28,147 nt of DNA from an uncultured Elusimicrobiales bacterium (GCA_964606755.1 CAZSIW010000001.1:1-28147); one strand, 5' to 3'; counted from the first letter of the stretch, positions 1,682-28,059 are shown. Notes: a model not told the origin generated them from the letters alone. Program-made: numbers and translations.

Positions 1682-2299
1682 TTACGCTTGTTTTTCTCTT
1701 ATCGGTCTTCTCATTTCAAGGCTGAAATTCGTGATGTACCCGCCGTTAAGCAGCAGGCTTACCCCGATTATTATCCCCAGAATAATGTTGTTTGCCGGCG
1801 TTACGGCGAACAAAGCGATGATCCCCAGGACAACTCCGTATATGGCGTTAAAGTTAGATATCGCGTCTACCGTAGGTCCGAAAAACCTTGTTACCCCGGC
1901 CGCGATAAGATAAACGCTTATTAAACCCATAAGGATCGAAAGACCGAACAGCGGGTGCGCCATGATCAACAGCCCCGCCAGGGCCGAAATGATCCCCAGG
2001 CTCAATTGTCCGAAAGATGAATCTGCCACTGAAGCTACTATGTTCACTATCCCGCTGACCAGAATCGACACCCCGAGCAGAAACACAAACGAGTCTCCGC
2101 CAAAAACGGAGCTTAGCCTGTAAAAAGCGGGGGACAACATCGCTACTAAACCGCATACGGCCTCGATTATCCCAAGTGCCTGCAGCGTCTGGGACGTGTT
2201 GGTAATTGCGGCGGAAAGCTGGCTCGCGTTGATCCTTTTTAATTCTTCTTCCACCAGAATTTTTGACTCCATCGTGGGTTGTTCCTGAAGAGTGACCAT
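1682..2299 (-). CDS. HdeD/DUF308 family membrane protein
   Basis: About six hydrophobic segments with repeated G-rich patterns (LLGVSILVSGIVNIV, GIISALAGLLIMAHP); SD AAGGAGG. Confidence 0.8.
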   Translation of the reverse strand: MVTLQEQPTMESKILVEEELKRINASQLSAAITNTSQTLQALGIIEAVCGLVAMLSPAFYRLSSVFGGDSFVFLLGVSILVSGIVNIVASVADSSFGQLSLGIISALAGLLIMAHPLFGLSILMGLISVYLIAAGVTRFFGPTVDAISNFNAIYGVVLGIIALFAVTPANNIILGIIIGVSLLLNGGYITNFSLEMRRPIREKQA

Positions 2300-2451
2300 A
2301 ATACGCCTCCTTTTTTAGAGCATGCCGGTTATTTGACAAGGCACTCGCGGCTGAACGATGATGTAAAAATTCAGAACAACGAATGCGTCGCAGGAAATAC
2401 CGCTATCGCTCTTTTTGGTTGGTGTTACGTCGAAGTATTAATTCTGGTTCC

Positions 2452-2480
2452 ATTCTAAAACTATTTTCGTGTTGTGTCAA
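2452..2480 (-). promoter_or_regulatory. sigma70-type promoter for the HdeD-like gene, implying a ~145-nt 5' UTR
   Basis: TTGACA-17 nt-TAGAAT. Confidence 0.75.
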
Positions 2481-2583
2481 CAAGATGTGGGAAATAGGTT
2501 ATGGCGGGGTTGTTAAATATAACCGTGTAATTTCAGCGCGCGCGGACTCAACATTTCAACCGTCTCAAAAAAGATGAGCCTCT

Positions 2584-2838
2584 CTACCTGTTTCCCTCAT
2601 AGTTGAACAGGTCTTTAAGCGTAAAATGCGTTTCCGGTCTGGCCGCGCAGAGGGCGCGCAGTATCTTCGTCTGGATATTGAACGTCAGCCGCCGGCCCCC
2701 TCGCCCCTTGTTGATCATCTTGTGCGTCAGTTGCTCTTTCGAAGCGAGGGCCAGGTCCGTGTTGGAGATGCCCAGCCGCGTCATTATCTCATCGAGCGGC
2801 TGCGGCCCCTGTTCCATATCGGGGATGAACGATGACAT
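2584..2838 (-). CDS. small hypothetical protein, possibly HTH-like
   Basis: 84 aa ORF continuing the rnr operon; segments GPQPL, L..AS.EQLTHKM, GRRLT.NIQ.KI.RAL resemble a small uncharacterized family (from recall). Confidence 0.7.
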   Translation of the reverse strand: MSSFIPDMEQGPQPLDEIMTRLGISNTDLALASKEQLTHKMINKGRGGRRLTFNIQTKILRALCAARPETHFTLKDLFNYEGNR

Positions 2839-2842
2839 TGTT

Positions 2843-3004
2843 TTATTTGTCGTGCTTCGCTACGAATTCCTTGATAGCTTCGATATTTTCCAGAACGAGC
2901 TTAGCCTTCTTCAGACCGAACTGGAACGGGAACTTGTCCTCTTCCGAGTTCTTCAGCACTATCATCGGGTTGCCCTTGTACTCTGATTCCGATACGATCG
3001 ACAT
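2843..3004 (-). CDS. 53-aa hypothetical protein missed by the ORF track
   Basis: Strong SD AAGGGAGGAG before ATG 3004; MSIVSESEYKGNPMIVLKNSEEDKFPFQFGLKKAKLVLENIEAIKEFVAKHDK*; fills the gap between rnr and the 84-aa ORF. Confidence 0.8.
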   Translation of the reverse strand: MSIVSESEYKGNPMIVLKNSEEDKFPFQFGLKKAKLVLENIEAIKEFVAKHDK

Positions 3005-3059
3005 GGTTACTCCTCCCTTGTTGCCTCACGGCCCTGCGGCCGCGGGTTATATACATCAT

Positions 3060-5018
3060 TTATCTTCTGTGCCGTTGTTTCGTCTGCCGCCGGGGCGTCA
3101 CGCGCCACTGGGCGGGGATCCGCGGCTGTTCCGCGAGAGAAAGGTCTATCTTCCCTTCGGCTGTATCCACGGCGTCCACCACTACTTTCACCTTTGTGCC
3201 TGGCATCAGGTTCGTCACCCTCAGCATGCCCTCTGCCCCCGTCGCTCCGCACATCACGAACGTGCCGCTCTCTATCACCGTCGTCACCGTTCCTTCCATC
3301 ACTACGCCTATCTGGTCCTTAAACAGCTCCGCCCGCATCAGGTCTACGGCCTTGTGCTCGGCTTCCGCCGCGGTCCGCTCGCGTTCCGAGCAGTGTTCGC
3401 CCGCCATTACGAGCGGAATTGCGCCGTGGTCTTCTTTTCTCCCGTGCAGAAGCGCCTTGACCGCGCGGTGCGCCATCAGGTCCGGGTACCTGCGTATCGG
3501 GGACGTAAAATGCGCGTAGGCTGTCGCGGCAATACCGAAATGGCCTTTTGATTCAGGCGAATAAACCGCCTGTTTCATACTGCGCACCATGAGAGAATTT
3601 ATAATGTCTGTCAAAGGATGGTTTTCGGCTTGGCGCAGGATATCCTGCAGGGCCTTGTGCGTGTTCCCGCCGATAAGGTGTCCCGCCGAAAGGCCCAGCT
3701 CGCCCAGCGCTTTTGCCAGCGCCTCTATCTTGGCCGGGTCCGGCTCGTCGTGTCGCCTGTGCAGGAACGGCGCCCCGGCGCGTATAAGCTCCGTCGCTAT
3801 GGCCTCGTTGGCAAGGAGCATGAACTCTTCTATAAGCCGGTGGCTCTTGAGCCTCGGGCGCAGCGCCACGCCTACGGGTTTACCCTTGTCGTCCGTCACC
3901 ACCTTGTATTCGGGAAGGTTAAAATCCAGGGCGCCCCGTTTTACCCTCGTGCGGTATAACACCTCGGCAAGCTTGCCCATGTGCGTTACGGCATCGTTAA
4001 CTATAGCGTGCACGTTGTGTACTTTTCTTCCGTCCAGCAGCTCCTGCACTTCCTCGTATGTGAACCGCCGGCACGAACGGATAACGGTCTGGGCCATCCG
4101 CCGTTTCGTCACCCTGCCTTCGGGATTTATATCCATGAACACAGAAAGCGTCAGCCGTTCCTGGTCTGGCACGAGACTGCATAGATTGTTCGAAAGAGAG
4201 GGGGGTATCATAGGCACAACGCGGTCCGGCAGGTAAACGCTCGTGCCGCGCGCGTACGCCTCTTTGTCCAGGGCTGAACCGTTCTTCACGTAATTTTCGA
4301 CGTCTGCTATATGAACGCCCAGCCGCGCGATACCGTTGCCGAGAGGTTCTATCGAAACTGCGTCGTCAAAATCTTTTGCGTCCGCCCCGTCAATAGTAAC
4401 CACGGGCAGGTGGAACAGCTCTTCCCTGTCTTTCCAGTGGTGGGGCTCAAGTTTATCGGGGAACGACTCGCTCTGCGCCAACACCTCTTTGGGAAATTTT
4501 TCAATAATGCGCCGCGCGCGAAGGAGCGCCGTTATGCACGCGTGCACATCGTCCTGCTCGCCCAAAACTTCTATCACCGTGCCGGCCGCGCCCTCGGTCG
4601 TCGATGGCCAGCGCGTCACCTCGAGCACCGCGAAGGCCCCCGCCATGGGCGCGATCTTCTGCGCGAAACCCGTCACCTGCGCCGGCGGCGCGTCGCCTTT
4701 CTCGGGCAAAACCACCCATCCGTGCGGAAATTTTTTGAGTATGCCGACTATCGAAGCGCTGGCGCGTTTAAGCACCTTTATTACTTCGCCGGCTACGCGG
4801 CCGTTGTGTTCGGTGTGCACCCTTGCCAAAACACGGTCGCCGTTCATGGCAAGGTCAAGCCCGCGTCCGCGCAAAAACACGTCCGGCTCGCCGGGCTTTT
4901 CAGCCAGAAGGAACCCGAACCGCCCATGATGCTGTATCACACCCTCTACGACGGGCCCTTCCTTTTCGGACGACCGCCTGTATTCCTGATGATGGTGTTT
5001 TTGCCAGTGTCTTTTCAT
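3060..5018 (-). CDS. rnr: ribonuclease R (RNase II/RNB family)
   Basis: Cold-shock domain GRFGFLL; RNB catalytic TIDGADAKDFDDAVS; HFTSPIRRYPDL; short C-terminal S1-like domain. Confidence 0.93.
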   Translation of the reverse strand: MKRHWQKHHHQEYRRSSEKEGPVVEGVIQHHGRFGFLLAEKPGEPDVFLRGRGLDLAMNGDRVLARVHTEHNGRVAGEVIKVLKRASASIVGILKKFPHGWVVLPEKGDAPPAQVTGFAQKIAPMAGAFAVLEVTRWPSTTEGAAGTVIEVLGEQDDVHACITALLRARRIIEKFPKEVLAQSESFPDKLEPHHWKDREELFHLPVVTIDGADAKDFDDAVSIEPLGNGIARLGVHIADVENYVKNGSALDKEAYARGTSVYLPDRVVPMIPPSLSNNLCSLVPDQERLTLSVFMDINPEGRVTKRRMAQTVIRSCRRFTYEEVQELLDGRKVHNVHAIVNDAVTHMGKLAEVLYRTRVKRGALDFNLPEYKVVTDDKGKPVGVALRPRLKSHRLIEEFMLLANEAIATELIRAGAPFLHRRHDEPDPAKIEALAKALGELGLSAGHLIGGNTHKALQDILRQAENHPLTDIINSLMVRSMKQAVYSPESKGHFGIAATAYAHFTSPIRRYPDLMAHRAVKALLHGRKEDHGAIPLVMAGEHCSERERTAAEAEHKAVDLMRAELFKDQIGVVMEGTVTTVIESGTFVMCGATGAEGMLRVTNLMPGTKVKVVVDAVDTAEGKIDLSLAEQPRIPAQWRVTPRRQTKQRHRR

Positions 5019-5057
5019 TATTGTTGTATTGTTTATGCATTACAATTTACTTTGTTA

Positions 5058-5086
5058 AAAATATCATATCCTAGGTTAAACGTCAA
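5058..5086 (-). promoter_or_regulatory. putative rnr promoter
   Basis: TTGACG-17 nt-TATTTT with an extended -10 TG. Confidence 0.5.
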
Positions 5087-5120
5087 GTGGAGCGCCTTCG
5101 GAGACTTTCTAAACAGGCGA

Positions 5121-5140
5121 CATCCCGCCGCGGCGGGATG
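5121..5140. repeat. perfect 20-bp GC-rich palindrome
   Basis: CATCCCGCCGCGGCGGGATG equals its own reverse complement. Confidence 0.9.
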
Positions 5141-5184
5141 CTAGCCTCAAATTTACCACACTTTTTTATGCTTTCGCCAATAAT

Positions 5185-14451: not shown

Positions 14452-14673
14452 TTATATTTTCGCAACGATATACTTTCTGTGCGACACTTCAATAAGGTCA
14501 CCGTTCTTCAGCCACTGCTGGTATCTCGCGTAATCCAGGAACATAAGAGAATCTCTCTCTTCCTGGTTCCTGGGCCTTCTTTTAGCGGCCCTTTTATTGC
14601 CCAGCAGCGCGGGGACTTTGAAATATTTATCTTTTTTCAGTTTAGCAAAATCATCATAGTTTATTTTTCGCAT
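14452..14673 (-). CDS. small basic hypothetical protein, partner of the upstream nucleotidyltransferase
   Basis: 73 aa, K/R rich; overlaps the upstream gene by 20 nt. Confidence 0.65.
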   Translation of the reverse strand: MRKINYDDFAKLKKDKYFKVPALLGNKRAAKRRPRNQEERDSLMFLDYARYQQWLKNGDLIEVSHRKYIVAKI

Positions 14674-15436
14674 TTTTTATTTCCGCCTTCAATTCCAGCA
14701 AAGCCGACTCGGTTTTTTCTTCCTTTGAACGCCCGTCAACATAAGCCCAGTCGATCTTATCATAATTTATAAGCATAAGGTCTTTTATCCAATTCCTTTC
14801 ATCCGTAGATTTCCAGTGAACTAAAGCGTTCAGCCTGTCGATTATAAGATCTTCAACGCCCAAAAGATAAACGCTTAAACCCTTGATCTCAACTTCAGCG
14901 AGATGCTCGGACTCTCCTTTTGTAAGCTGAGAGCCCGGCGCTTCGATATACACATCCAGTTCTTTGTGTATCCAGTGCCTGCCTGCTTTTATAAACCCGA
15001 ACCCTAAAAGAACCTTTCCCAGCAGTTCGCTGTCGGCAAAAACCAGGTCAATATCGGCGGTGTTATAGCCGCCCATCGTGTAAAACTCCACGGCAAAACC
15101 GCCCACAATTACGGGCTTCACTTTATATTTTGCCAGTTCCTTGGAAATAACGGCGACAATATATAACTGCCTTTTTAATTTGTCATGTATGCCGGAGGCT
15201 GCTTTCAACAGCTCTTTGGGTTCGCTTGCCGCGGAATAACTGTTTTTGTCTTCATGAAGTTCGTTCGCGGGCAACTCTTGAGATATCCACTTATCGATAT
15301 CTGATCTGACAAAACGGTACTGCCCGCCGATTTTCTTGAAGGGTATTTCTCTGCTTTTGACAAGCTGGTATACCTTTTTTGTGCTTAATTTAAGGTATTT
15401 TGCTATTTCCGCGACATCTAATATTTCTGTGTCCAT
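14654..15436 (-). CDS. excisionase-like HTH_17 domain fused to a nucleotidyltransferase (DUF6036-like)
   Basis: N-terminal ILDVAEIAKYLKLSTKKVYQLVK.REIPFKKIGGQYRF; NTase motif IVGGFAV...T.DIDLV. Confidence 0.8.
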   Translation of the reverse strand: MDTEILDVAEIAKYLKLSTKKVYQLVKSREIPFKKIGGQYRFVRSDIDKWISQELPANELHEDKNSYSAASEPKELLKAASGIHDKLKRQLYIVAVISKELAKYKVKPVIVGGFAVEFYTMGGYNTADIDLVFADSELLGKVLLGFGFIKAGRHWIHKELDVYIEAPGSQLTKGESEHLAEVEIKGLSVYLLGVEDLIIDRLNALVHWKSTDERNWIKDLMLINYDKIDWAYVDGRSKEEKTESALLELKAEIKNAKNKL

Positions 15437-17458: not shown

Positions 17459-18598
17459 TTACATTTGAATCGTTTCAATTCCAGTCAACGGCATGCTTGT
17501 GCATTTTTCATCGAGGCTGTATCGTTCCTTGCCAGGATAAACTACCCATAAATGCTCAAGCTTTAAGTCTTCTATGGCGATTTTCATTGATTTAGTTAAA
17601 ACCGGCGCATCTGAACATTTAAACTCAAAACCATATTTTTTCCCTTTTCTTAAAAGCAGAAGATCCAACTCAGCGCCGTTATATGTGCGCCAGAAAAACG
17701 AATCCCTCTCGCCAAATTTATTTAGTATCTCTTCACAAGCAAAACCTTCCCATGAGGCGCCGATCTTAGGATTAAGCAGCATTTCTTTATAACCCGATAA
17801 ATTCAAAAAAGCATGAAATATTCCGCTATCTCTTAAATATATTTTAGGGGATTTGATCAATCGTTTACCCATGTTCTCATAAAAAGGCGATAACTGACGT
17901 ATCATATATGTTCCAGTCAAAGCGTCAAGATATTTCTGGGCAGTGGTATGCGAAACACCTATGGAAGAGCCTATTTCAGAACCGTTCCATATCTGCCCGT
18001 GATAATGCGTTATCATGCCCCAGAACCGTTTCATTATCGCTGTGGATACTCCCAGTCCAAGCTTCAGCACATCTCTTTCAAGAAATGTTTTTATGAAATC
18101 ATGCCGCCAAGACAGGCTGTCTGAATCATTCTTCGAGAGGAATGATTTCGGGAATCCGCCCCTTACCCAAAGCCTGTTAAGCTTCCCGACGCCGACTTCT
18201 TCAATCGAGAACCCCGCCATATCCACAAAATGAATCCTTCCCGCAAGCGATTCTGAAGACTCCTTTATCAATTCAGGAGAAGCGCTTCCAAGTATCAAAA
18301 ACCTTACTTTTAAAGGCTTCTTGTCTGAGTATACCCTCAACAATGGAAGCAAATCGGGTTTTCTCTGTATCTCATCAAGCACAATTATGCCGCTGAAAGA
18401 ATCAAAGATCAGCTGGGGCCTGTTAAGTTTTGCTTCATCAAGCGGATTTTCAAGGTCAAAGTAGAGGCTTTTGAATTTTCCAGCGACAGCCCTGGCTATA
18501 GTGGTTTTTCCACATTGCCTAGGGCCGAGAAGGGCAGTCACTGGATTCTTTTTTATACCGGCATTTATTCTATCAAAGATCAGTTTTCTTTCAATCAT
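17459..18598 (-). CDS. AAA+ ATPase (AAA_14) with DUF4143 and a C-terminal PD-(D/E)xK-like domain
   Basis: GPRQCGKTT, LDEIQR, LGSAS, LAGR, GGFP, KSPKIYLRDSG, ELDLL...GFEFK. Confidence 0.9.
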   Translation of the reverse strand: MIERKLIFDRINAGIKKNPVTALLGPRQCGKTTIARAVAGKFKSLYFDLENPLDEAKLNRPQLIFDSFSGIIVLDEIQRKPDLLPLLRVYSDKKPLKVRFLILGSASPELIKESSESLAGRIHFVDMAGFSIEEVGVGKLNRLWVRGGFPKSFLSKNDSDSLSWRHDFIKTFLERDVLKLGLGVSTAIMKRFWGMITHYHGQIWNGSEIGSSIGVSHTTAQKYLDALTGTYMIRQLSPFYENMGKRLIKSPKIYLRDSGIFHAFLNLSGYKEMLLNPKIGASWEGFACEEILNKFGERDSFFWRTYNGAELDLLLLRKGKKYGFEFKCSDAPVLTKSMKIAIEDLKLEHLWVVYPGKERYSLDEKCTSMPLTGIETIQM

Positions 18599-18605
18599 TT
18601 TTCCT

Positions 18606-18672
18606 CCAGTAATATTGAAACATGCATTTGCAATATTACTGGTATTATATATCTTTCACTTGGTTTATGCAA
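18606..18672 (-). promoter_or_regulatory. promoter and perfect 12-bp inverted repeat over the transcription start of the AAA gene
   Basis: TTGCAT-17 nt-TATAAT (18644-18672); CCAGTAATATTG-13 nt-CAATATTACTGG (18606-18642). Confidence 0.75.
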
Positions 18673-18692
18673 CAGGTATTGGAGAATTTATA

Positions 18693-18747
18693 CTCCTGCC
18701 AATAAAAAACCACCCGCCAAAACTTCATGGCAAGTGGATAAAATTTC
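18693..18747. repeat. direct repeat copy B, probably the terminator of the DUF1801 gene
   Basis: Minus strand CCACTTGCCA-loop-TGGCGGGTGG-TTTTTT, followed by an SD-like GGCAGGAG with no start codon after it. Confidence 0.92.
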
Positions 18748-18769
18748 GCTCTCTGTTATTATTGTATCT

Positions 18770-19138
18770 CTATTTTTTTCTCTTCAGGTTTTCTTGCACC
18801 CTAAACGCAGTTATCTTCTTCACCAGGTCGTAGGGGATAGGCTCATCCATAGGAAACCGCACGGTGCCTTTGGAAAGGCTGTACCGCGACAGCTCTTTCT
18901 TAAATTTGCTTACGCCAGAAGACGTAGGAAAAAAACCGATATGGTTTTTGAAGGCCGCGAAGTATACCAGAGCGCCATTGAGCACAAACGCCGGTATCCT
19001 GTAACTGATCGTCTCTGCAGCCCCCGGCGCAGTTTCTTTTATCACCTGTCTCATTTTTCCGAGAATGCCCGAGACCGGAGCTGGGAAAGATTTTATATAT
19101 TCATTTATAGTCGTGATCTGTTTTTTCCGCGCTATCAT
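18770..19138 (-). CDS. DUF1801 (YdhG-like) protein
   Basis: TINEYI..FP, ETISY.IPAF, VYFAAFKNHIGF.P, SKGTVRFP.DEPIPYDLVKKI. Confidence 0.88.
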   Translation of the reverse strand: MIARKKQITTINEYIKSFPAPVSGILGKMRQVIKETAPGAAETISYRIPAFVLNGALVYFAAFKNHIGFFPTSSGVSKFKKELSRYSLSKGTVRFPMDEPIPYDLVKKITAFRVQENLKRKK

Positions 19139-20163
19139 CAGCCCTGCTTTCCGCCATCCAGCTCGTCCAGCTCTTTTTGCGAGTGCTGAATGATCGCTAT
19201 CAGGCTGGCCTTTTCCGCTTCGCTTACGGAAGGCTCTTTCATCCGGGCCTGCGATTGTTCTATTGTTGATACTAGCTGGGTTTTCATCAGCGCCTTTATC
19301 GGGTCTACCTCTGCCCCCGCTTGGGCCTTATTGTCAGGGGGTGTGCCTGCCTCCACAACCTCCAACTTCGGCATCGTGTGATCGAGAGGGGGGTTCTGGT
19401 CAGGCGCTATTTGAAGCGGCATTGGTTGTTCGCCTTTCCCTTTGCTCTTACCCCTTTGCTCTTTTCTCTGCAGTTGGGCCTGCTCTTTTATCTGTTTTAT
19501 TAGATCCTGTGCAAAAGCTATGGCCTGATCGGGATTATCGCGCTTTCTGTCAAATTTCAGGGTAGCGCAAAATCCACTTTTAGTTGATTTTACATACATA
19601 TTCTTGTTTTGAGAAACCGAATCGTAATTATTACGATTGCCTGCGTTTCCCACATCGGTTGCACTTATTTCACCCGTTATTATCCTTTTATGCACATCCT
19701 CCGGCGCCTCGGCTACCTTAATGTATCTGCGCACCTGGCCTTCGGTTTTACCTATCAATAGGCCTATCTCCTCGTTGGTCTTTTTCTTCTCATCTTTAAG
19801 CCTCTTGCAGGCAAACATTATATCCAAAGTGTTCAGGGTCTTGCGGTCTATGTTTTCAATAAAGTTGGTGCTAAGCATGTCTTCCTGGCTGGCATCGGCC
19901 TCGGGTATGGTGATGGCCAGAATGCTCTCCCACTTAAGGCTTATGGCCGCGGCAAGCCTGCGCAGCCCGCTCACCACCACCAGCTCCCCGCTGTGCCTGC
20001 GCCACAACAGGATGGCGAACTTCTGCCCATTCTCCGCCATCGACTTTGCAAGCCCCGCAACGCTCTCCGGGGTAATGTCCCTGCGGAACTGGAACTCCCT
20101 GTTCGCGGCATTGATATCCGCGATCTTCACCCACCCCTGCTGATACTTCGAAAGGTCTAACAT
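19138..20163 (-). CDS. orphan ParB/Spo0J-like protein with a long unrelated C-terminal region
   Basis: VSGLRRLAA (ParB Arg patch), IENIDRKTL (ENLxR), HTH EEIGLLIGKTEGQVRRYI; no ParA in the window. Confidence 0.85.
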   Translation of the reverse strand: MLDLSKYQQGWVKIADINAANREFQFRRDITPESVAGLAKSMAENGQKFAILLWRRHSGELVVVSGLRRLAAAISLKWESILAITIPEADASQEDMLSTNFIENIDRKTLNTLDIMFACKRLKDEKKKTNEEIGLLIGKTEGQVRRYIKVAEAPEDVHKRIITGEISATDVGNAGNRNNYDSVSQNKNMYVKSTKSGFCATLKFDRKRDNPDQAIAFAQDLIKQIKEQAQLQRKEQRGKSKGKGEQPMPLQIAPDQNPPLDHTMPKLEVVEAGTPPDNKAQAGAEVDPIKALMKTQLVSTIEQSQARMKEPSVSEAEKASLIAIIQHSQKELDELDGGKQG

Positions 20164-20218: not shown

Positions 20219-20548
20219 CTATTTGCGTGTGTGGCTGATTTTTGATTTGGGTTTCTGGATCACTTCGAACCCGCTGGATTCGATCGTTTTGCGAAACTCC
20301 GGGGTTAAAGCGTTCCAGTCCAGAACATCTGCTATGATAGGAATGTCAGATTCGGAGAGAGCCTGTTTGATCTTTTCGATCAGGCGCCAATCTAGTTTGT
20401 GGTTGTCAACGAGAATAATATCAATATCGGAGTATTTTTTTGCCTTGCCTGTTACCCGGGACCCGAAAACACGTGCCTCACAGCCCGGGGCAAGCTCAGC
20501 CAGAATATTTTTAATTTCTTTAAGATAATTTGTATCCAGATCAATCAT
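20219..20548 (-). CDS. minimal nucleotidyltransferase (MNT), putative antitoxin
   Basis: FGSRVTGKAKKYSDID fits GSx10DxD; overlaps the upstream HEPN gene by 8 nt. Confidence 0.9.
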   Translation of the reverse strand: MIDLDTNYLKEIKNILAELAPGCEARVFGSRVTGKAKKYSDIDIILVDNHKLDWRLIEKIKQALSESDIPIIADVLDWNALTPEFRKTIESSGFEVIQKPKSKISHTRK

Positions 20549-20957
20549 TGTGTTTTTCCAGCTGTATCAGCAGATATTTCGCGTCTCCCGAAAACCGTAA
20601 GGCCTGCTTAAAAACGATCTCGGCTTTATCCAGATCATAAGTATGAGCTGTCAGGTTGCGGGCATCACCGTATTCAAACCAGGGAAGAGGATCGCTTATA
20701 ATACCGTACTGCGCCGCCATGCGAAAAAGTTCTTTACGCGTCCGCGGAAGTTCAACGTCGCCTTTGCTTTGATTTTCTTTCAGCCAGCGCTGCATAAATT
20801 TCCAGCACAATTCGTATGTAAACTCAAAATTCTGAATTACGCCCGCTCGAAGCACCTCTTCCTGATCCTTTCCGGACCCGGCCTGGCCCGCCGCAACTTT
20901 AATAGCGCGCTCGAGAGAATCAACTGCTTTCTGCAGACTGCTAAGATCTAAAACCAT
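20541..20957 (-). CDS. HEPN-domain protein (HI0074-type), putative RNase toxin
   Basis: GVIQNFEFTYELCWK; RNLTAHTY fits Rx4HxY; SD GGAGGG. Confidence 0.9.
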   Translation of the reverse strand: MVLDLSSLQKAVDSLERAIKVAAGQAGSGKDQEEVLRAGVIQNFEFTYELCWKFMQRWLKENQSKGDVELPRTRKELFRMAAQYGIISDPLPWFEYGDARNLTAHTYDLDKAEIVFKQALRFSGDAKYLLIQLEKHND

Positions 20958-21001
20958 ACAAACCCTCCGGACATCTTAAACGCAACCCTGACAACAGTTT
21001 T

Positions 21002-21030
21002 ATTGTACCTCTTTAATCTAGAGTTTTCAA
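21002..21030 (-). promoter_or_regulatory. promoter for the HEPN-MNT pair
   Basis: TTGAAA-17 nt-TACAAT. Confidence 0.7.
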
Positions 21031-21176
21031 ACCCCTCAACATCCCCCGGAGTGTTCCTCAAAAGTCAGTGGTTGAAGTTCACCCCGGCACGAAAAATTGT
21101 TATACTAAAAATTACCGCGGCAGCGTCGACGCTCAGGCCGCGGCACCACGCCCCGGCGGGACAAAGGAGGAATATC

Positions 21177-21362
21177 ATGGCAAAAGCAATAGACCCGGTC
21201 TGCGACACGGAAGTGGACACCAAAACAGCATTCAAGAGCGAGTACAAGGATAAGACATACTATTTCTGTTCCAAGGACGATAAGAACGAGTTCGACATGC
21301 ACCCCACGGCATACACCGGCAAACAGAAAGAAAAAGTAGGAAGCTCAAAAGAAAGCTGCTAA
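21177..21362 (+). CDS. YHS-domain protein (61 aa)
   Basis: SD AAGGAGG then MAKAIDPVC...YKDKTYYFCS...F...P..Y; extended -10 TGTTATACT at 21098-21106. The track start at 21003 is an over-extension. Confidence 0.88.
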   Translation: MAKAIDPVCDTEVDTKTAFKSEYKDKTYYFCSKDDKNEFDMHPTAYTGKQKEKVGSSKESC

Positions 21363-21367
21363 AAAAC

Positions 21368-21409
21368 AAAAGCGGGGCCAGGCATTTTTTAAAGTCCTGA
21401 CCCCGCTTT
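21368..21409. terminator. bidirectional terminator between the YHS gene and hsdR
   Basis: AAAGCGGGG.CAGG...CCTG.CCCCGCTTT. Confidence 0.7.
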
Positions 21410-21430
21410 ATTATTTGTTATTGCAATAAG

Positions 21431-24400
21431 TTAATTAGGTGTTGTGTTCCCAGAATTTCCCAACAAATCTTCTGCTAAAAGCTTTGCTTGGTCAAGAACG
21501 GTTTGAACAGCTTTTTCCTGCAAATCAGGCGGGTACCCATTTAAACGAAGAATCCTGCGAACATTTCTTCTTAAACCGGATTGCACGCTTTCTTTAATGG
21601 TCCAATCAATTGTAGTGCTGCTCCGCACTGTTTTCAATAATTCCTGAGCAATTTGTTTCAATATCTTATCTCCGAGAACAGCCACGGCGCTATTATTTAC
21701 CTCTAACGCCGTATAAAATGCATATTCTCTGAAATCCAGGCCTAATTCCTCGCCTCTTCTGTCAGCTTCTTTTATTTGCCCGGCAAAAGGAATCAGCACT
21801 TTTTCTAAAAACTCAACAGTATCAATCATTCCGTTGTGGTAACGTTTTATAGCGTCCGCCAGCATATCAGAAAACTTCTTGCTTTCAACCAGGTTTATTT
21901 TTGTTCTTTTCCTAATCTCATCTTTCAATAACTTTTTCAACAATTCAACGGCTAAATTCTTTTGGGGCATATGTTTCAATTCTTCAAGAAAACGCTCGTC
22001 AAGTATTTCGATACTCGGCTTCTTTATGCCTGCGGCATCGAAAACATCTATAACTTTATCGGCGGTTATCGCTTCGGATATTATCTGTTTTATCGCTGTT
22101 TCCATTTCCTGATCGGATTTGCCGCCCTCATTTCTGTCTGATATTTTGACAAGCCTTGCCTTTACAGCCTGGAATAAAGCAACATTATCGCGTATAGCCA
22201 TAACCCTTTCATGTGGAACAGAAATCGCAAACGCTTTCAGCAAATTTATTGTATTATCAACAAATGCCTGCTCCCCGTTTTCCTGGCTGAAAATGTAATC
22301 AACAATAACAGGAATATATCTTAATTTACCTTCGGAAGTTAGAGTAAAGAATTTCTTCCAATCAAAATGCCTTAATTGATACTCGATAGCCTCATAATAT
22401 TCTAAACACTTAGCCACAGCTATTTCCTGATCAAGAGCAGGTTTACCTTTCCCGCCGTTTACGGTATATTCTGTTAATGCGTGTTTTAATTCCTGCGCTA
22501 TGCCAAGATAATCTACTACTAAACCGCCCTCTTTATCTTCTCTAAATACGCGGTTCACCCTGGCAATTGCCTGCATCAGGGTGTGGCCCCTCATAGGTTT
22601 ATCAACATAAAGCGTGTGTAAACAGGGCGCATCAAAACCTGTAAGCCACATATCCCTAACAATCACAAGTTTTAAAGGGTCTGTAGGATTTTTCAGCCTG
22701 TCACCGATAGCTTTTCTTCTCTCTTTATTTCTAATATGTGGCTGCATCCTTAACAAATCACTGGAAGAACCGGTCATAATTACTTTTATACTTCCTTTAT
22801 CGTCATCTTCGCTATGCCAATGAGGCCTGAGTTTGATGATTTCCTCATACAAATCAACGCAGATTCTGCGGCTCATGCACACAATCATCGCTTTACCGTC
22901 CAAAACTGCATTGCGGTCTTCAAAATGCTTTACTAAATCTTCTGCGATTTTCTTAATGCGGTTTGGATTGCCTACTATAGCTTCCAGTCTTGCCCATTTA
23001 GCTTTTAACTGCTGGCGCTGGGTTTGTTCTTCTGTTTCAGTTACTTCATCAAACTTTTCATCAACCTTTGGTTTTTCTTCTTCCGTAAATTTAACTTTCG
23101 CCAATCTGCTTTCATAATAAATTGTTACAGTTGCCTTATCGTCAACGGCCTGCTGAATATCATAAATATCGACATAATTTCCAAACACAGCCTGAGTGTT
23201 GCGGTCTGTGGTTTCTATCGGGGTACCAGTAAAACCTATGAAAGATGCGTTAGGCAATGAATCACGCAGATGCTTTGCATAACCATCAATAAAATCATAC
23301 TGGCTGCGGTGTGCCTCATCTGCAATTACAACAATATTTTTGCGAAGGCTCAAAGCTTTTATTTCAGCGCCTATATACTCTGCCCTTGGTTCTTTAACAG
23401 CAAGAGCGGGCTCAACAATATCTTCCTGCATCGGCATAAACTTTTGAATTGTTGTAAACACAATACCGCCTGAAGCAACTTTTAGTAACTGTTGTAAATT
23501 TTTTCTATCCTGCGCCTGCTGAGGCTGCTGACGCAACAACTGCTGGCAATTACTAAATGTGTCAAAAAGCTGGTCATCCAAATCATTTCTGTCTGTCAGT
23601 ACAACAATTGTGGGGTTATCCAAAGCTAAAACAAGCTTACCTGTATAAAACACCATAATAAGGCTTTTTCCACTGCCTTGCGTGTGCCACACTACACCTG
23701 CACGCCTGTCACCTTCTTCTGCAACAGCTATCTTTGTCGTTTCAACAGCCTTGTTTACAGCATAATACTGATGATACGCGGCAACCTTTTTAAGAGTTTT
23801 ATCTTTGCTCTTTTCATAAACAATAAAATGAGATATTAAATCCAGTAATGTCTCCTTGTTCAACATACCTTTACACATTACTTCTAACTGAGGTAAAACT
23901 GAGTCCGCAGTTGTCTTACCGTCTTTTGTTTTCCAGCTTGAAAACCTACCCCAATCGCTTGTAAGTGTTCCACATTTTGCGTCCCACCCGTCACTTACAA
24001 TAAGCAGCTCATTATAGGTAAATAATGATTGTATAGTTTGTTTATAGGTTTGTAATTGGTTAAAAGCTGTTTTTACGGTAGCGGTTTCATCAGCGGCATT
24101 CTTTAATTCTATTACAACAAGAGGCAGGCCGTTAACAAACAACACGATATCGGGGCGTTTATTCAAATTGTTTTCTAGTACGGTAAACTGGTTTACACAA
24201 AGGAACTCGTTTTTCTTGGGCTTATCAAAATCAACTATATAAACCTTTTTCCATTCACTACCTGTTTGTGTTCTTATTTCAACATCAATGCCTTCTGTAA
24301 GATACTTATGAAATGTTTCATTGTTTATCAACAGGTTTGGGCTTTCAGCACGCAAAACTTTTTTCAGAGCGTCTTCTTTTGCTTCATTTGGAATATCAGG

Positions 24401-24574
24401 GTTAAGTTTATCGATTGCATCGCGCAGGCGGGTGACAAGCACAACCTCGTTATACTTACGCTCAGGGTGCTCGCCATCAGGCGAAATATCCGGGCCTAAA
24501 AGATGCGTATATCCGAGATTTATAAAATAATTAATAGCTATTTGCTCTATTTCGTCTTCACTTATAGAGTTCAC
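21431..24574 (-). CDS. hsdR: type I restriction endonuclease subunit R
   Basis: Nuclease [57 protein letters not shown] start overlapping the hsdS stop. Confidence 0.97.
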
Positions 24575-26100
24575 GCTTTTACCTCAATCTTTCCGGACAT
24601 GAGTCTTGGCAACAAATTGTCACGTAGTTGTATCAATGTTTGAATCTCTAATGTATTATTGAGTATTTTAGTATCAATACCATTCGCAATTATCTCAAAT
24701 TTTTGAATATTTTTTTCATCCGGTTCTATTACTTCGATATTTTCAAAATTTGTCTTACTGATAGAACCAAAGACTGTACCTTCGCCTTCAAAAACACGGA
24801 AAGTACTTTCTAGATTTTTCATTGAATAGTAAGTAAAAGAATAAGCTCCTGTTTTATGCTTAATAGCGGAAAGACCACGTCCGATGCAACAATCTTCCAT
24901 CGCCATATTTATATCACCAACAGGAGCCCGTACACTAATTAGCGTATCGTATCTTTTTGCTTTTCTAGATGGGTTTGTTGTATACATCCTATTAGAAGGA
25001 AACCTAAAACCAAAGTCAGTCCTTCCTTGGTAAAACACATCACCTTCACCAGTTTCATTATAACTTTCTCCAGGAGGTGATTGCCCCATAATCAGATTAA
25101 AACTATCTCCTAATTTCCCGATTTTCCAGCCCTTCGGTAAGCCATTTACAAATTTGCCATCAAATCCTGGAAAATTGAATTTTACGAACCATTCTTTAAA
25201 AATTGCCTGCACCATTTCTTCAAGGGTTTTGTTTGTTTGCAGGTTGGTTTCAATTTTATCATCTAAAGCTGAAAGAATAGAAGCAATTGCTTTTTGTATT
25301 TTTTTACTGGAAGGAGCAATGAACTCATACGCACAAATCCTTGATGGCGATGTATGTTTTACAGATGATCCTGTTGCTGAACCTACAATAAAACCTTGAT
25401 ACTGTCTAGTTCTAAGTATCCAATAAACAAAATCCTTGTCTAATTCATCGTTTTTAAACTTTACAAGACCCAATCTTTGATTGTGTAAAAATCTAACTCC
25501 TGCGTGTGCAGGTATTTTAGCTGAATACCCTAAAGTATCGCCAGCCTTACTTAGATCAGTCATACTAATTATAATATCGCCTTCTTTTAAAATATAATCT
25601 TTTGGTACTTCGCCCTCGTAATATTTAAACTTATCAGTTTTAAAACCACCACCAATTTCAAAATTGCCTGGGGTTAATAGAATGTTTTTAGTTGGTTTGT
25701 CTGAAAAATACTTACCCTGGAATGCAAAGCCATGCCTTACTTCAATATGATCTCCCAATTTATATGTTTTCCATCCTTTCGGAAGCTGCTTTTGATCGGA
25801 TTTCATATCTTGAAGCACAACATATTGTTTCTCAATATTTTTCTTAAATTTATCAGGTATACTATACCAATCGTGAACATCCACGCGAAAAGGTAAATCT
25901 GAGTCGTCAAATGCTTCTTTTAAAGATGATAAATTAGTTTTTTGTTCAGGTGTGATGAATGCTGTTAGATCGAGGTCTGATTCCGGCTTTGAGGTAAATT
26001 TTACTCGTGAACCAAAGGCCCATACTTTAGTAGAGGGCAAATAACTATTAAGCAAGGAAAGAATTATTTTTCTTTGCTTAACTGTGAGGTCTATCTTCAT
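24571..26100 (-). CDS. hsdS: type I specificity subunit S with an N-terminal MNT nucleotidyltransferase domain (fusion)
   Basis: First ~100 aa: [18 protein letters not shown] (GSx10DxD), [12 protein letters not shown]. Then [15 protein letters not shown]1[25 protein letters not shown]2[12 protein letters not shown] with no intervening stop. Start set to ATG 26100 (ATGA overlap). Confidence 0.93.
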
Positions 26101-26525
26101 GCCCTTTCCCACGCTTTACCTGTCATTTTCATGTACAGTTCTATCGCATCGGCTATATAATCTCCCATAGATTCCAGGGCAATATCAGCTTTATTTTCTG
26201 AATAATCGTGAGAAGTGTCTACTCTGAATTGCAAATATTTTAACCACTGTTCTATGCTTGAAGAGAAGAGTTTATTTTCATTTGCAATACGGAAAATTTC
26301 TTTTGGGCTGTTTGGCATATCGGAGACACCCATTTCTTCAGAAAGGTACCGCTTAAGGACTTTCCATAAACTATCAAAGCAAACTTCAAATCTTTGTATA
26401 ACAGATTCCTTTACAGCTTCTTGGATAAGTTCTTCAACATCTGTTTTATTTCGCATCTGTTGATAATTTATATATTGCAGTTCAAGATGTTTTAATGATT
26501 TCTCAAGTTTATCGTATTCAATCAT
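26097..26525 (-). CDS. HEPN-domain protein (HI0074-type) inside the RM operon
   Basis: ESVIQRFEVCFDSLWK, SPKEIFR; RVDTSHDY fits Rx4HxY; ATGA overlaps at both ends. Confidence 0.9.
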   Translation of the reverse strand: MIEYDKLEKSLKHLELQYINYQQMRNKTDVEELIQEAVKESVIQRFEVCFDSLWKVLKRYLSEEMGVSDMPNSPKEIFRIANENKLFSSSIEQWLKYLQFRVDTSHDYSENKADIALESMGDYIADAIELYMKMTGKAWERA

Positions 26526-28042
26526 ATTTTGTACCCCACTTTTTTTAGGTTTTTCTTTATTTGCTCATCCAGCATTGATGCTTTGCTCATCTGTTCTTTT
26601 AATTCTTTGGTCAGATGTTTCATTTTTTTATCAAAAGATTCATCATCTTCTTCCGTATCTTTAAGTTCAATATATCTTCCAGGAGTGAGAATATGGTTAT
26701 TTTTTCTTATTTCTTCTATACCTGCAGATTTACAAAAACCAGGAACATCTTTATACTTTTTCTTCCATTCTTTGCCTTTCCAATTATGGTATGTTGCTGA
26801 AATCTTTGCGATATCGGCATCTGTTAACTCTTTCTGACTGCGGCTTATCATTGTGCCCATTTCGCGGGCATCGATAAAGAGTATTTCATTGCTGCGGTTA
26901 CGAAATTTACTATTAGTTTTATTTCGCGCCAAAAACCACAGACAGGCAGGAATCTGAACATTATAAAATAATTGCGCCGGCAATGATACCATGCAATCAA
27001 CCAAATCATTTTCTATCATTTTTTGCCTGATCAACCCTTCGGAAGACGTGTCACTGCTCATACTGCCGTTTGACAACACTATTCCCGCGCTGCCATATGA
27101 AGAAAGTTTGCTTGCAAAATGTTGAAGCCAGGCGTAGTTTGCGTTACCGGGTGGGGGAATGCCATATTTCCATTTATGTGTTTCAGAAGGATTAATTGTA
27201 TATTCACTCACGTTAAAAGGAGGATTCGCCATAATATAATCCACTTTCAAGTCAGGGAATTTGTCATCTTTAAGAGTATCTCCAAGCTCAATTTTAGCTT
27301 CAATACCGCGAATTGCCAGATTCATCTTTACCAGTCTGTAAGTTGTAGGGTTACTTTCCTGGCCGTATATAGATATTTTACCTTTACGGTGTTCATGCAT
27401 TTCAATAAATCGTTCGCTTTGAACAAACATTCCTCCGCTTCCGCAGCAGCCGTCATAAACTCTTTTCTCGGACTCAGGCGCAAGCATTTCAACCAGTAAT
27501 TTAACTATACATGAAGGAGTATAAAACTGCCCGCCCCTTTTACCTTCAGCGTTGGCAAACTGGCCGAGAAAATATTCAAATACAAAACCAAGCAAATCTT
27601 TGCCTTTTTCCTTCCCTTCGCCGGTTAGAGTAATAGAACCGATTAAATCGATAAGCTCCCCGAGTTTTTGCTTATCTAAAGCCGGTCTTGCGTAATCTTT
27701 TGTTAGTACACCTTTAAGTGAAGGGTTATCTTTTTCAATCGCCTCCATTGCATCGTCAATGTCTCTTCCTATAGTGGGAAGCTTTGCTCGTCCCTGAAGC
27801 CACTTCCACCGGGCCTGGGGAGGGACATAAAATACGTGATCTGCACTGTATTCGTCTTTGTCTTCAGTGTCAGCGCCGGGGGTAGCCTTGATTTTCAAAT
27901 AATGTTCTTCAAAAGCATCCGAAATATACTTTAAAAAAATAAGCCCGAGAACCACATGACTGTATTCAGACGGGTTCATATGAGAGCGAAGTTTATCCGC
28001 TGTTAGCCATAATTTTTTTTCAAGCTCATAATTCTCAGTCAT
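26522..28042 (-). CDS. hsdM: type I DNA methyltransferase subunit M (N6-adenine type)
   Basis: LW..AD.LR, GGQFYTP, motif I YDGCCGSGGMF, motif IV ANPPFN. Start 28042 preferred (SD GGAGA); ATG 28057 lies only 2 nt after the predicted -10. Confidence 0.96.
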   Translation of the reverse strand: MTENYELEKKLWLTADKLRSHMNPSEYSHVVLGLIFLKYISDAFEEHYLKIKATPGADTEDKDEYSADHVFYVPPQARWKWLQGRAKLPTIGRDIDDAMEAIEKDNPSLKGVLTKDYARPALDKQKLGELIDLIGSITLTGEGKEKGKDLLGFVFEYFLGQFANAEGKRGGQFYTPSCIVKLLVEMLAPESEKRVYDGCCGSGGMFVQSERFIEMHEHRKGKISIYGQESNPTTYRLVKMNLAIRGIEAKIELGDTLKDDKFPDLKVDYIMANPPFNVSEYTINPSETHKWKYGIPPPGNANYAWLQHFASKLSSYGSAGIVLSNGSMSSDTSSEGLIRQKMIENDLVDCMVSLPAQLFYNVQIPACLWFLARNKTNSKFRNRSNEILFIDAREMGTMISRSQKELTDADIAKISATYHNWKGKEWKKKYKDVPGFCKSAGIEEIRKNNHILTPGRYIELKDTEEDDESFDKKMKHLTKELKEQMSKASMLDEQIKKNLKKVGYKI

Positions 28043-28059
28043 TTTTTCTCCATTCATTT

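Follow-up and report, generated by a model that had tools for sequence, protein, structure and literature searches.

Why should a type I restriction-modification (RM) operon carry a gene for a small putative toxin, and why should the putative antitoxin of that toxin be built into HsdS, the specificity subunit? The question is raised by a 28,147-nucleotide (nt) stretch of DNA from an uncultured Elusimicrobiales bacterium (GCA_964606755.1, CAZSIW010000001.1:1-28147), referred to over its whole length as the window. An earlier interpretation of the window (the sequence-only reading) had described the gene order hsdM - HEPN - MNT::HsdS - hsdR, in which a HEPN gene precedes a minimal nucleotidyltransferase (MNT) domain fused in frame to HsdS. 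All four open reading frames (ORFs) were found on the minus strand at the claimed places, and each of the three 4-nt junction overlaps described there (ATGA at 26525-26522, ATGA at 26100-26097, and GTGA at 24574-24571) was read again from the sequence at the same positions. Sequence comparisons further indicate that MNT::HsdS is a real, abundant, and overlooked protein family. The operon consists of the following features.

26522..28057, minus: hsdM, type I methyltransferase subunit, 511 amino acids (aa), with an alternative start at 28042 (PF02384, 2e-103; PF12161, 2e-27; PADLOC MTase_I, 3e-190).
26097..26525, minus: HEPN gene, 142 aa, HI0074 / NTase_sub_bind family, predicted ribonuclease (RNase) toxin (PF08780, 5.5e-23; TIGR01987).
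26202..26225, minus: RX4HXY motif RVDTSHDY, HEPN residues 101-108, with Arg and His as the catalytic residues and Tyr as the predicted AMP acceptor.
24571..26100, minus: MNT::HsdS fusion, 509 aa, matching Polbeta/NTP_transf_2 at residues ~20-100 and Methylase_S in two stretches.
25810..26100, minus: MNT domain, fusion residues 1-97, HI0073-like and without the alpha-4 helix (PF18765, PF01909).
25969..26013, minus: GSX10DXD catalytic motif, fusion residues 30-44 (G30 to D44), with F35 at 25996-25998.
25777..25809, minus: flexible linker from the MNT domain to the first target-recognition domain (TRD1), about residues 98-108.
24571..25776, minus: HsdS part of the fusion, with two target-recognition domains (TRDs) and two long conserved helices (PF01420 twice; PADLOC Specificity_I models).
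21431..24574, minus: hsdR, restriction/translocase subunit, 1047 aa, GTG start (HSDR_N, 1e-49; SWI2_SNF2, 5e-81; T1RH-like_C, 5e-114; TIGR00348, 636.8 bits).
21362..21406, 3' of hsdR and common to a convergent YHS-domain gene: G+C-rich hairpin followed by a run of T, read directly from the sequence and missed by the automatic scan.

Two start codons required a choice. The hsdM start given in the sequence-only reading, 28042, is the second in-frame Met, and the longest ORF begins at 28057; either start is possible. For the fusion, the mechanical ORF begins with GTG at 26112, and the ATG at 26100 yields the ATGA overlap and fits the N-termini of homologues. With three 4-nt overlaps and a terminator hairpin after hsdR, which likely marks the end of the operon, the four genes look like one unit. 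By every sequence criterion tried, this unit is a complete type I RM operon: HsdM carries the N6_Mtase and HsdM_N domains, HsdS carries two TRDs, and HsdR combines a nuclease with an SF2 motor.

To which family, then, do the two inserted partners belong? The HEPN protein scored 59.2 bits against TIGR01987 (HI0074 family), passing the cutoff of 55.8, and its sequence relatives of solved structure are 1wwp, 1wty, 1jog (HI0074), and 8xdj, which was deposited as "HEPN toxin." The Rx4HxY motif ascribed to it earlier is present at residues 101-108, and R101, H106, D107, and Y108 were invariant across 11 RM-embedded homologues. As a 142-aa protein with a lone PF08780 domain and no ATPase, it differs from PrrC and RloC, in which an N-terminal ABC/Rad50-like ATPase precedes a C-terminal HEPN nuclease domain. 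On the MNT side, the GSx10DxD motif was read at residues 30-44 and lies, as had been described, in frame with a complete two-TRD HsdS, whose Methylase_S matches fall in two stretches; G30, S31, S41, D42, and D44 were invariant in an alignment of 26 sequences. One report (PMC7641770) defines class I HepT/MntA by a HEPN gene (PF01934 or PF08780) adjoining an MNT gene (PF01909), with the motifs RX4HXY and GSX10DXD; in this class, the MNT adds three AMPs to the motif tyrosine and thereby blocks the RNase. In the window, the PF08780 protein adjoins the PF01909/PF18765 domain through a 4-nt overlap, and both motifs are in place. On sequence grounds, the assignment of the embedded module as a class I HEPN/MNT (type VII) toxin-antitoxin (TA) cassette of the HI0073/HI0074 subfamily is solid.

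The HepT/MntA-type identity proposed in the sequence-only reading thus stands at the level of class I motifs and requires narrowing at the level of subfamily: the module belongs with HI0073/HI0074, is ordered toxin first, has an MNT without alpha-4, and scores only 29.6 bits against the NCBIfam MntA equivalog NF047752, under the curated 60-bit cutoff. By this measure the MNT domain is a relative of Shewanella-type MntA and not an equivalog. Like Shewanella SO_3166/SO_3165 (PMC7641770) and the Aphanizomenon HEPN-MNT pair (Songailiene et al. 2020, cited in PMC13645617), the window pairs a small RX4HXY HEPN with a GSX10DXD MNT, and by analogy the expected mechanism would be the same, oligo-AMPylation of the tyrosine. 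Unlike those systems, the window module is toxin first, falls short of the MntA equivalog cutoff, and lies inside an hsd operon. The pairs HI0073/HI0074 of Haemophilus influenzae and HEPN-MNT of Legionella pneumophila (1no5, 1jog, 8xdj, 8xeo; PMC11586414) belong to the same subfamily and share the short, alpha-4-less MNT, a type that in Legionella poly-AMPylates the motif tyrosine of its HEPN. However, these are free two-gene modules, whereas the window MNT continues at its C-terminus as HsdS, and translation of the pair is coupled to that of hsdM and hsdR.

The structure predicted for the fusion is that of a modular protein. An AlphaFold2 model built from 26 homologues had a mean predicted local distance difference test (pLDDT) score of 89.5, and the sole stretch below 50 was residues 100-104, within the linker. 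In Foldseek comparisons, the N-terminal 98 residues of the model matched HI0073 (1no5) with a target template modeling score (TM-score) of 0.90, a root-mean-square deviation of 1.5 Å, and 42% identity; they also matched 8xeo, the structure of an MNT antitoxin. The C-terminal 400 residues matched the HsdS crystal structures 3okg, 5ybb, 1yf2, and 1ydx, with the long helices of the HsdS part modeled at residues 266-306 and 462-501. Between the two halves, the sequence and length of the linker differ from one homologue to the next. The model therefore indicates that MNT::HsdS is a real, modular protein. We also considered a conserved internal start that would yield free HsdS as a second product; this candidate was rejected because Met98, in the linker, is not conserved in homologues.

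How widespread is such a protein? When the full fusion was searched against 5.8 billion proteins, the closest matches to the TRDs were ordinary HsdS proteins of 402-407 aa, with 72-73% identity to the HsdS part, and some 30 full-length fusions (480-560 aa, 42-54% identity) were present among the best 120 HsdS relatives. Alignment of these homologues showed that either TRD may be swapped for an unrelated one while the MNT remains attached. Residues 1-125 of the fusion were then used in an exhaustive HMMER search of 1.84 billion cluster representatives, which returned 3054 relatives of the MNT part at an E value of ≤0.001; an HsdS domain was present in 130 of the best 150 of these. The fusion is accordingly carried by at least 130 clusters at 50% identity, from Bacteroidota, Spirochaetota, Pseudomonadota, and further phyla, and the hosts of the genome loci described below include Bacteroidota, Spirochaetia, Ignavibacteriales, Methylococcales, Arenicellales, Caenarcaniphilales, and others. 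The first 98 positions of one PADLOC S-subunit profile, PDLC03138, match free MNT, so the fusion is already contained, without a label, in the PADLOC S-subunit models. "Restriction endonuclease subunit S" is the name given to fusion P0020, the only source-named fusion among the matches, and to a fusion on plasmid pZMOB01 of Zymomonas mobilis ATCC 10988. The latter plasmid provides a cultured and finished example of the fused operon, with the following genes.

30878-32470: pZMOB01 hsdM.
3-392: pZMOB01 HEPN, motif RNLTSHTY.
389-1972: pZMOB01 MNT::HsdS, 527 aa, motif GSRARWTAKDYSDLD.
1969-5154: pZMOB01 hsdR.

A second Z. mobilis strain, ZM4, was considered as a ready-made test, since Lal et al. 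(2021) report that deleting a plasmid hsdS, said to contain two conserved domains, caused no growth defect (PMC8432527), and since the locus numbering passes over one gene. It was rejected: in the pZM32 record the order is hsdR-hsdM-hsdS, the HsdS next to hsdM is of the ordinary kind (420 aa), and neither HEPN nor MNT is annotated; the ZM4 deletion is therefore uninformative on the MNT::HsdS family.

If the MNT of the fusion acts on the HEPN, the two should occur together. The sequence-only reading had proposed counting how often an HI0074-type HEPN accompanies MNT-HsdS inside hsd operons. We recovered 80 genome loci through the MNT N-terminus, together with loci fetched through single proteins, and annotated them with hidden Markov models made from the window proteins. 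The scan used a 6-sequence N-terminal alignment (a 17-sequence alignment was too diverse), and the sample is biased to relatives of fused MNTs. A HEPN gene of ~140 aa lay directly upstream, mostly overlapping, in 27 of 28 fused genome loci, with the RX4HXY motif intact in 25 of the 27; the gene order in fused loci was hsdM-HEPN-MNT::hsdS, with hsdR either upstream or downstream. Because this sample was seeded on fused MNTs, a HEPN-seeded scan of metagenomes served as a countercheck. Among the 80 metagenome loci so obtained, RX4HXY was kept in all 80, and an MNT came next downstream in 79, that is, after every HEPN with enough downstream DNA. These 79 MNTs comprised 47 fused to HsdS, 16 free-standing, 15 cut by the contig end, and 1 followed by a separate hsdS. 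No HEPN in this sample was followed by an HsdS lacking an MNT or by anything else. Where hsdM lay upstream, 40 loci were fused versus 1-2 unfused. The HEPN-MNT pairing is obligate, as expected of a toxin and its antitoxin, and the fused state is the norm in the slot between hsdM and hsdS.

In the one fused genome locus without an upstream HEPN, L004 (3518-8650), an unknown 207-aa protein and a HicB-like antitoxin stand in its place, and HsdM contains an inserted DUF559/MTES_1575 module; L085, a close relative of L004, retains its HEPN. Two HsdS proteins of ~770 aa, P0023 and P0040, also carry DUF559/MTES_1575. P0023 has an MNT as well; precomputed Pfam lists none for P0040.

These counts bear on the simplest alternative, that the in-frame fusion in the window arose artificially from two genes, through chimeric assembly or a frameshift introduced by sequencing. 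Unfused versions do exist, at loci L016, L081, and L160 and on Acetobacter plasmids. However, dozens of independent fused ORFs occur in isolates, metagenome-assembled genomes (MAGs), and metagenomes, including the one on the finished plasmid pZMOB01, and in the window the frame is continuous, with a structured domain on either side of the linker. An artifact is excluded at the level of the family and is extremely improbable for the window itself. The sequence-only reading had allowed that the fusion might turn out to be a one-off or a chimera with no conserved HEPN linkage; it proved to be abundant, spread over many phyla, and nearly always preceded by a HEPN.

The window contains a second, paralogous pair of this kind, just downstream of hsdR, which is absent from the sequence-only reading and has a promoter-like site at 21030-21002.

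20957..20541, minus: free-standing HEPN gene, 138 aa, motif RNLTAHTY (PF08780, 3e-35).
20548..20219, minus: free-standing MNT gene, 109 aa (PF18765, 2e-11).

The free-standing and embedded pairs are only 29% (HEPN) and 32% (MNT) identical, and none of the PADLOC models matched either HEPN of the window. At 99% bootstrap support, the free-standing pair clusters with pairs that are each the second at their locus, in three Deltaproteobacteria MAGs (L014, L017, and L021); 3-5 kb from each of these lies a free-standing relative of the embedded pair.

How did the fusion arise, and how often? In all related loci recovered, the cassette is ordered toxin first, which places the MNT gene against hsdS. 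In the unfused locus L016, the MNT stop and the hsdS start share an ATGA inside an A-rich run, where one indel would join them; the two genes are likewise separate in L081, in L160, and on plasmids of Acetobacter pasteurianus. A neighbor-joining tree was built from concatenated HEPN and MNT sequences (242 columns, 300 bootstrap replicates), and, given the poor support for deep nodes, only clades with ≥80% bootstrap were interpreted. One clade of 30 members, most of them reading H-T-Y, is separated from the rest with 100% support; H-D-Y is the motif of the embedded pair and of most remaining sequences. The free pair of the window is a member of this clade, the embedded pair is not, and fused forms are found both within the clade and beyond it. 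Within the clade, the fused forms belong to two separately supported groups in which free pairs are also present (L037/L042 with L082, 100%; L049/58/64/75 with L059/L071, 100%). Fused L023 pairs with free L039 (80%). This interleaving in clades of 80-100% support implies at least three fusion or fission transitions. A phage origin of the cassette was examined and rejected: in 2.9 million viral contigs, only 2 matches turned up, both short and partial.

A rival explanation is that the cassette is selfish and its fusion incidental: mobile TA cargo lodged between hsdM and hsdS that stabilizes the operon or island, or does nothing, with toxin control independent of the state of the RM system. Fusion would then be a near-neutral by-product of overlapping stop and start codons and the need for translational coupling between hsdM and hsdS. 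The subfamily includes many closely related free pairs (55-57% identity over concatenated HEPN and MNT), a second free pair adjoins the window's own operon, and the ATGA overlap that alone links MNT and hsdS in L016 is one indel from a fusion. On the A. pasteurianus IFO 3283-01 plasmid pAPA01-020 (NC_013211.1; locus L092), the order is an unfused hsdM-HEPN-MNT-hsdS in which an IS5 element splits hsdS and only a truncated hsdR is left, yet HEPN and MNT are annotated as complete, all of which this explanation would accommodate. Against this, neutral fusions would be expected to re-split about as readily as they form, whereas the hsdM-hsdS slot is fused in ~40 cases versus 1-2 unfused, and the fusion persists over many phyla and through turnover of the TRDs. 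Fused forms also occur in several supported clades, and their catalytic loops have an aromatic substitution in common: position four of the X10 in GSX10DXD is F or W (GSRVK[F/W]) in 26 of 27, 47 of 47, and 101 of 105 fused sequences, versus mostly Gly (28 of 51) in free MNTs, with an aromatic residue also found in some free sisters of fused clades. On this evidence, we consider a selfish cassette with an incidental fusion to be the main rival, possible but rather unlikely. Related copies of the unfused Acetobacter arrangement are present on about 20 Acetobacter plasmids.

The company that the cassette keeps in related operons also bears on its nature. Fic, PDDEXK_3, Abi_C, and DSPc occupy junctions of the same RM family, which favors the cargo interpretation, and the cargo in the gap between hsdS and hsdR of related operons includes Abi_C, PDDEXK_3, DSPc, and Trypsin_2. 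Given this variety, the HEPN/MNT cassette is one passenger among several that these operons can carry. Genes lodged as cargo in type I RM, BREX, and DISARM operons have been documented under the term "guilt by embedding" in a preprint (bioRxiv 10.1101/2024.01.29.577857). The arrangement here is alike in that genes are nested within an immune operon of an RM family that also carries Fic, Abi_C, and PDDEXK_3; it differs in position, with the window cassette in the hsdM-hsdS junction and other cargo of these operons mostly in the hsdS-hsdR gap. The operons of the closest ordinary HsdS proteins belong to the same RM family and lack HEPN and MNT, as at locus L086. In one of them, the sister operon L088 (2796-5008), whose HsdS shares 68% identity with its counterpart in the fusion, a Fic protein (an AMPylating family) and an unknown 289-aa protein occupy the hsdM-hsdS slot, which can thus take up differing cargo.

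Could the pair instead have been recruited to serve the RM system as an enzyme? In such a scheme, the pair would act as a domesticated two-part nucleotidyltransferase on some restriction-related target (an Hsd subunit, DNA ends, RNA, or a phage protein, for instance), thereby controlling RM activity or broadening it. Both the name and the annotation of the HEPN family are those of a substrate-binding subunit for a nucleotidyltransferase, and MNT-HEPN modules elsewhere are described in a survey as having become protein-modifying enzymes (PMC3710099). The same source states that domesticated HEPNs typically lose their RNase residues, whereas the R, H, and acceptor Y of the present family hardly vary at all, which makes such a role unlikely; in addition, characterized pairs with the same motifs are toxin-antitoxin systems (PMC7641770, PMC11586414). 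A second MNT in the same slot, fused to a DUF1016/YhcG nuclease at locus L049, would fit a recruited enzyme, but overall we judge this explanation improbable. In L049 (1670-3121, Methylococcaceae), the DUF1016/YhcG PD-(D/E)xK nuclease with its C-terminal MNT lies between hsdM and HEPN, and the HEPN is thus flanked by two MNT domains, each on a different fusion partner.

What might a tethered antitoxin do? To our knowledge, PrrC is almost the only worked example of a coupling between RM and immunity-linked suicide or dormancy. Such a coupling has long been suggested for RM loci with HEPN toxins; RM-linked HEPNs have been proposed as a PrrC-like backup to restriction (PMC3710099, PMC3506569, PMC3632139), and a 2013 survey noted immunity loci seemingly without antitoxins (PMC3632139). 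The PrrC/EcoprrI system of type Ic RM resembles the window in encoding a HEPN-superfamily RNase in a type I hsd operon, and suggests a latent RNase held in check in association with the RM complex. The two differ in design: PrrC is a large ABC-ATPase::HEPN protein that is silenced noncovalently, is released by the T4 Stp peptide, and has no antitoxin enzyme, whereas the window encodes a minimal HEPN and an enzymatic antitoxin tethered to HsdS. In FhepTA (PMC13000451), the MNT antitoxin is likewise part of a larger polypeptide; however, that MNT is carried on its own toxin, and the window MNT is carried on HsdS with the toxin separate. For the Legionella pair, the published study (PMC11586414) describes an MNT without alpha-4 and a HEPN that is a Mg-dependent RNase, is tri- or tetra-AMPylated, binds the MNT transiently, and stays active at low ATP or after loss of the labile MNT.

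By analogy with these systems, the explanation we consider best, at a probability of roughly 45%, is that a HEPN/MNT cassette captured in the hsdM-hsdS junction forms a PrrC-like second line of defense with an enzymatic, complex-borne antitoxin. In this proposal, a class I HEPN/MNT cassette was captured at the tight hsdM-hsdS junction, and a flexible linker of ~10 residues connects its MNT, in frame, to the start of HsdS. The HEPN would be an RNase with an RX4H active site, held inactive by oligo-AMPylation of the RX4HXY tyrosine (Y108). AMPylation would be performed by the HsdS-borne MNT, hence presumably on M2S1 and R2M2S1 complexes, and antitoxin activity would depend on how much RM core is present, whether it is intact, and where it is found. 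Should newly made HEPN outpace the S-borne MNT, either because the complex is blocked, degraded, or lost or because ATP is low, the RNase would arrest translation, giving an abortive second-line response behind restriction. We infer the toxicity, the AMPylation, the presence of the MNT on the assembled complex, and the trigger from characterized relatives.

The coupling of toxin control to RM state, as a guard or an addiction device released by anti-restriction proteins, HsdS loss, or hsdS swapping, had been put forward in the sequence-only reading. It is plausible by analogy with PrrC/EcoprrI and the type VII TA mechanism. The idea that the module makes a particular specificity allele addictive is weak, in that the MNT remains attached while both TRDs vary among homologues. 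In the strongest version of the coupling, the RM complex would be the platform that checks a type VII TA system: the S-borne MNT would keep the HEPN AMPylated only as long as the M2S1/R2M2S1 core is produced and undisturbed, failed restriction would be converted into RNase-mediated abortive infection upon phage anti-restriction measures, HsdS loss, or energy collapse, and repeated independent fusions would mean selection of the tether itself. We regard this version as tentative and on the doubtful side.

Several considerations weigh against the proposed second line of defense. Neutralization in type VII systems is covalent, and loss or blockage of the MNT would affect only newly made HEPN; otherwise a de-AMPylating activity would be needed, and we know of none that anyone has identified. 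The linker is flexible, and the structural model suggests no allosteric path by which anti-restriction proteins (DNA mimics, for example) would reach the activity of the MNT. The HEPN is decayed or lost in 2 of the 28 fused loci (H to Q in L023, replaced in L004). A 1-nt change at the ATGA overlap suffices to fuse the two genes, and repeated fusion could be mechanically easy instead of selected. The Fic and unknown genes in the same slot of L088 are unrelated cargo, which fits plain embedding of cargo. Finally, the phylogeny is a neighbor-joining tree on 242 columns with weakly supported deeper nodes.

RM-embedded HEPN toxins and a PrrC-like backup are known ideas; the tether between antitoxin and HsdS appears to be new and was found in no paper searched. 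In its main text, the preprint on embedded cargo makes no mention of MNT, nucleotidyltransferase, or hsdS, and a cargo-encoded antitoxin fused to a core RM subunit is, to that extent, not reported there. Likewise, the literature searched, which covered few subscription journals, yielded no account of an HsdS-fused MNT antitoxin and none of a HEPN/MNT pair at the hsdM-hsdS junction. RM censuses, TA censuses, and defense finders could easily miss the HEPN/MNT module because the named sources say only "restriction endonuclease subunit S." With an antitoxin enzyme built into the specificity subunit, the hypothesis of immunity coupled to suicide or dormancy becomes directly testable with simple constructs. 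Deletion of hsdS to improve transformability in such strains might also unmask the toxin. If the RM complex does serve as the checking platform and the tether is selected, the PrrC problem would have an enzymatic answer of general reach, with one domain of the immune complex acting as the antitoxin to an immunity-linked toxin.

The remainder of the window places the operon in its genomic setting. The G+C content across the hsd operon (window positions 21001-28000) is 35-42%, versus ~50% for most of the remaining window, which codes for chromosomal functions, including an RNase II/R-like protein, RF3, a DEAD-box helicase, and a histidine kinase. Low G+C amid such genes suggests that the operon was recently acquired horizontally, as an island. 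Between the free-standing pair and RF3, on the minus strand at 17459-20163, lie genes for a 341-aa ParB-like protein whose long C-terminal half is of low complexity, a DUF1801 protein, and an AAA_14/DUF4143 ATPase. The stop of the DUF1801 gene abuts the ParB-like gene, and a gene of the AAA_14/DUF4143 type also adjoins the fused RM operon in L003 (469-1704). Farther along the minus strand, at 14452-15436, a 260-aa protein combining an excisionase/MAD1-like HTH_17 domain with a DUF6036 nucleotidyltransferase is followed by an overlapping 73-aa ORF with no family match; these two genes may constitute another nucleotidyltransferase-type two-gene module.

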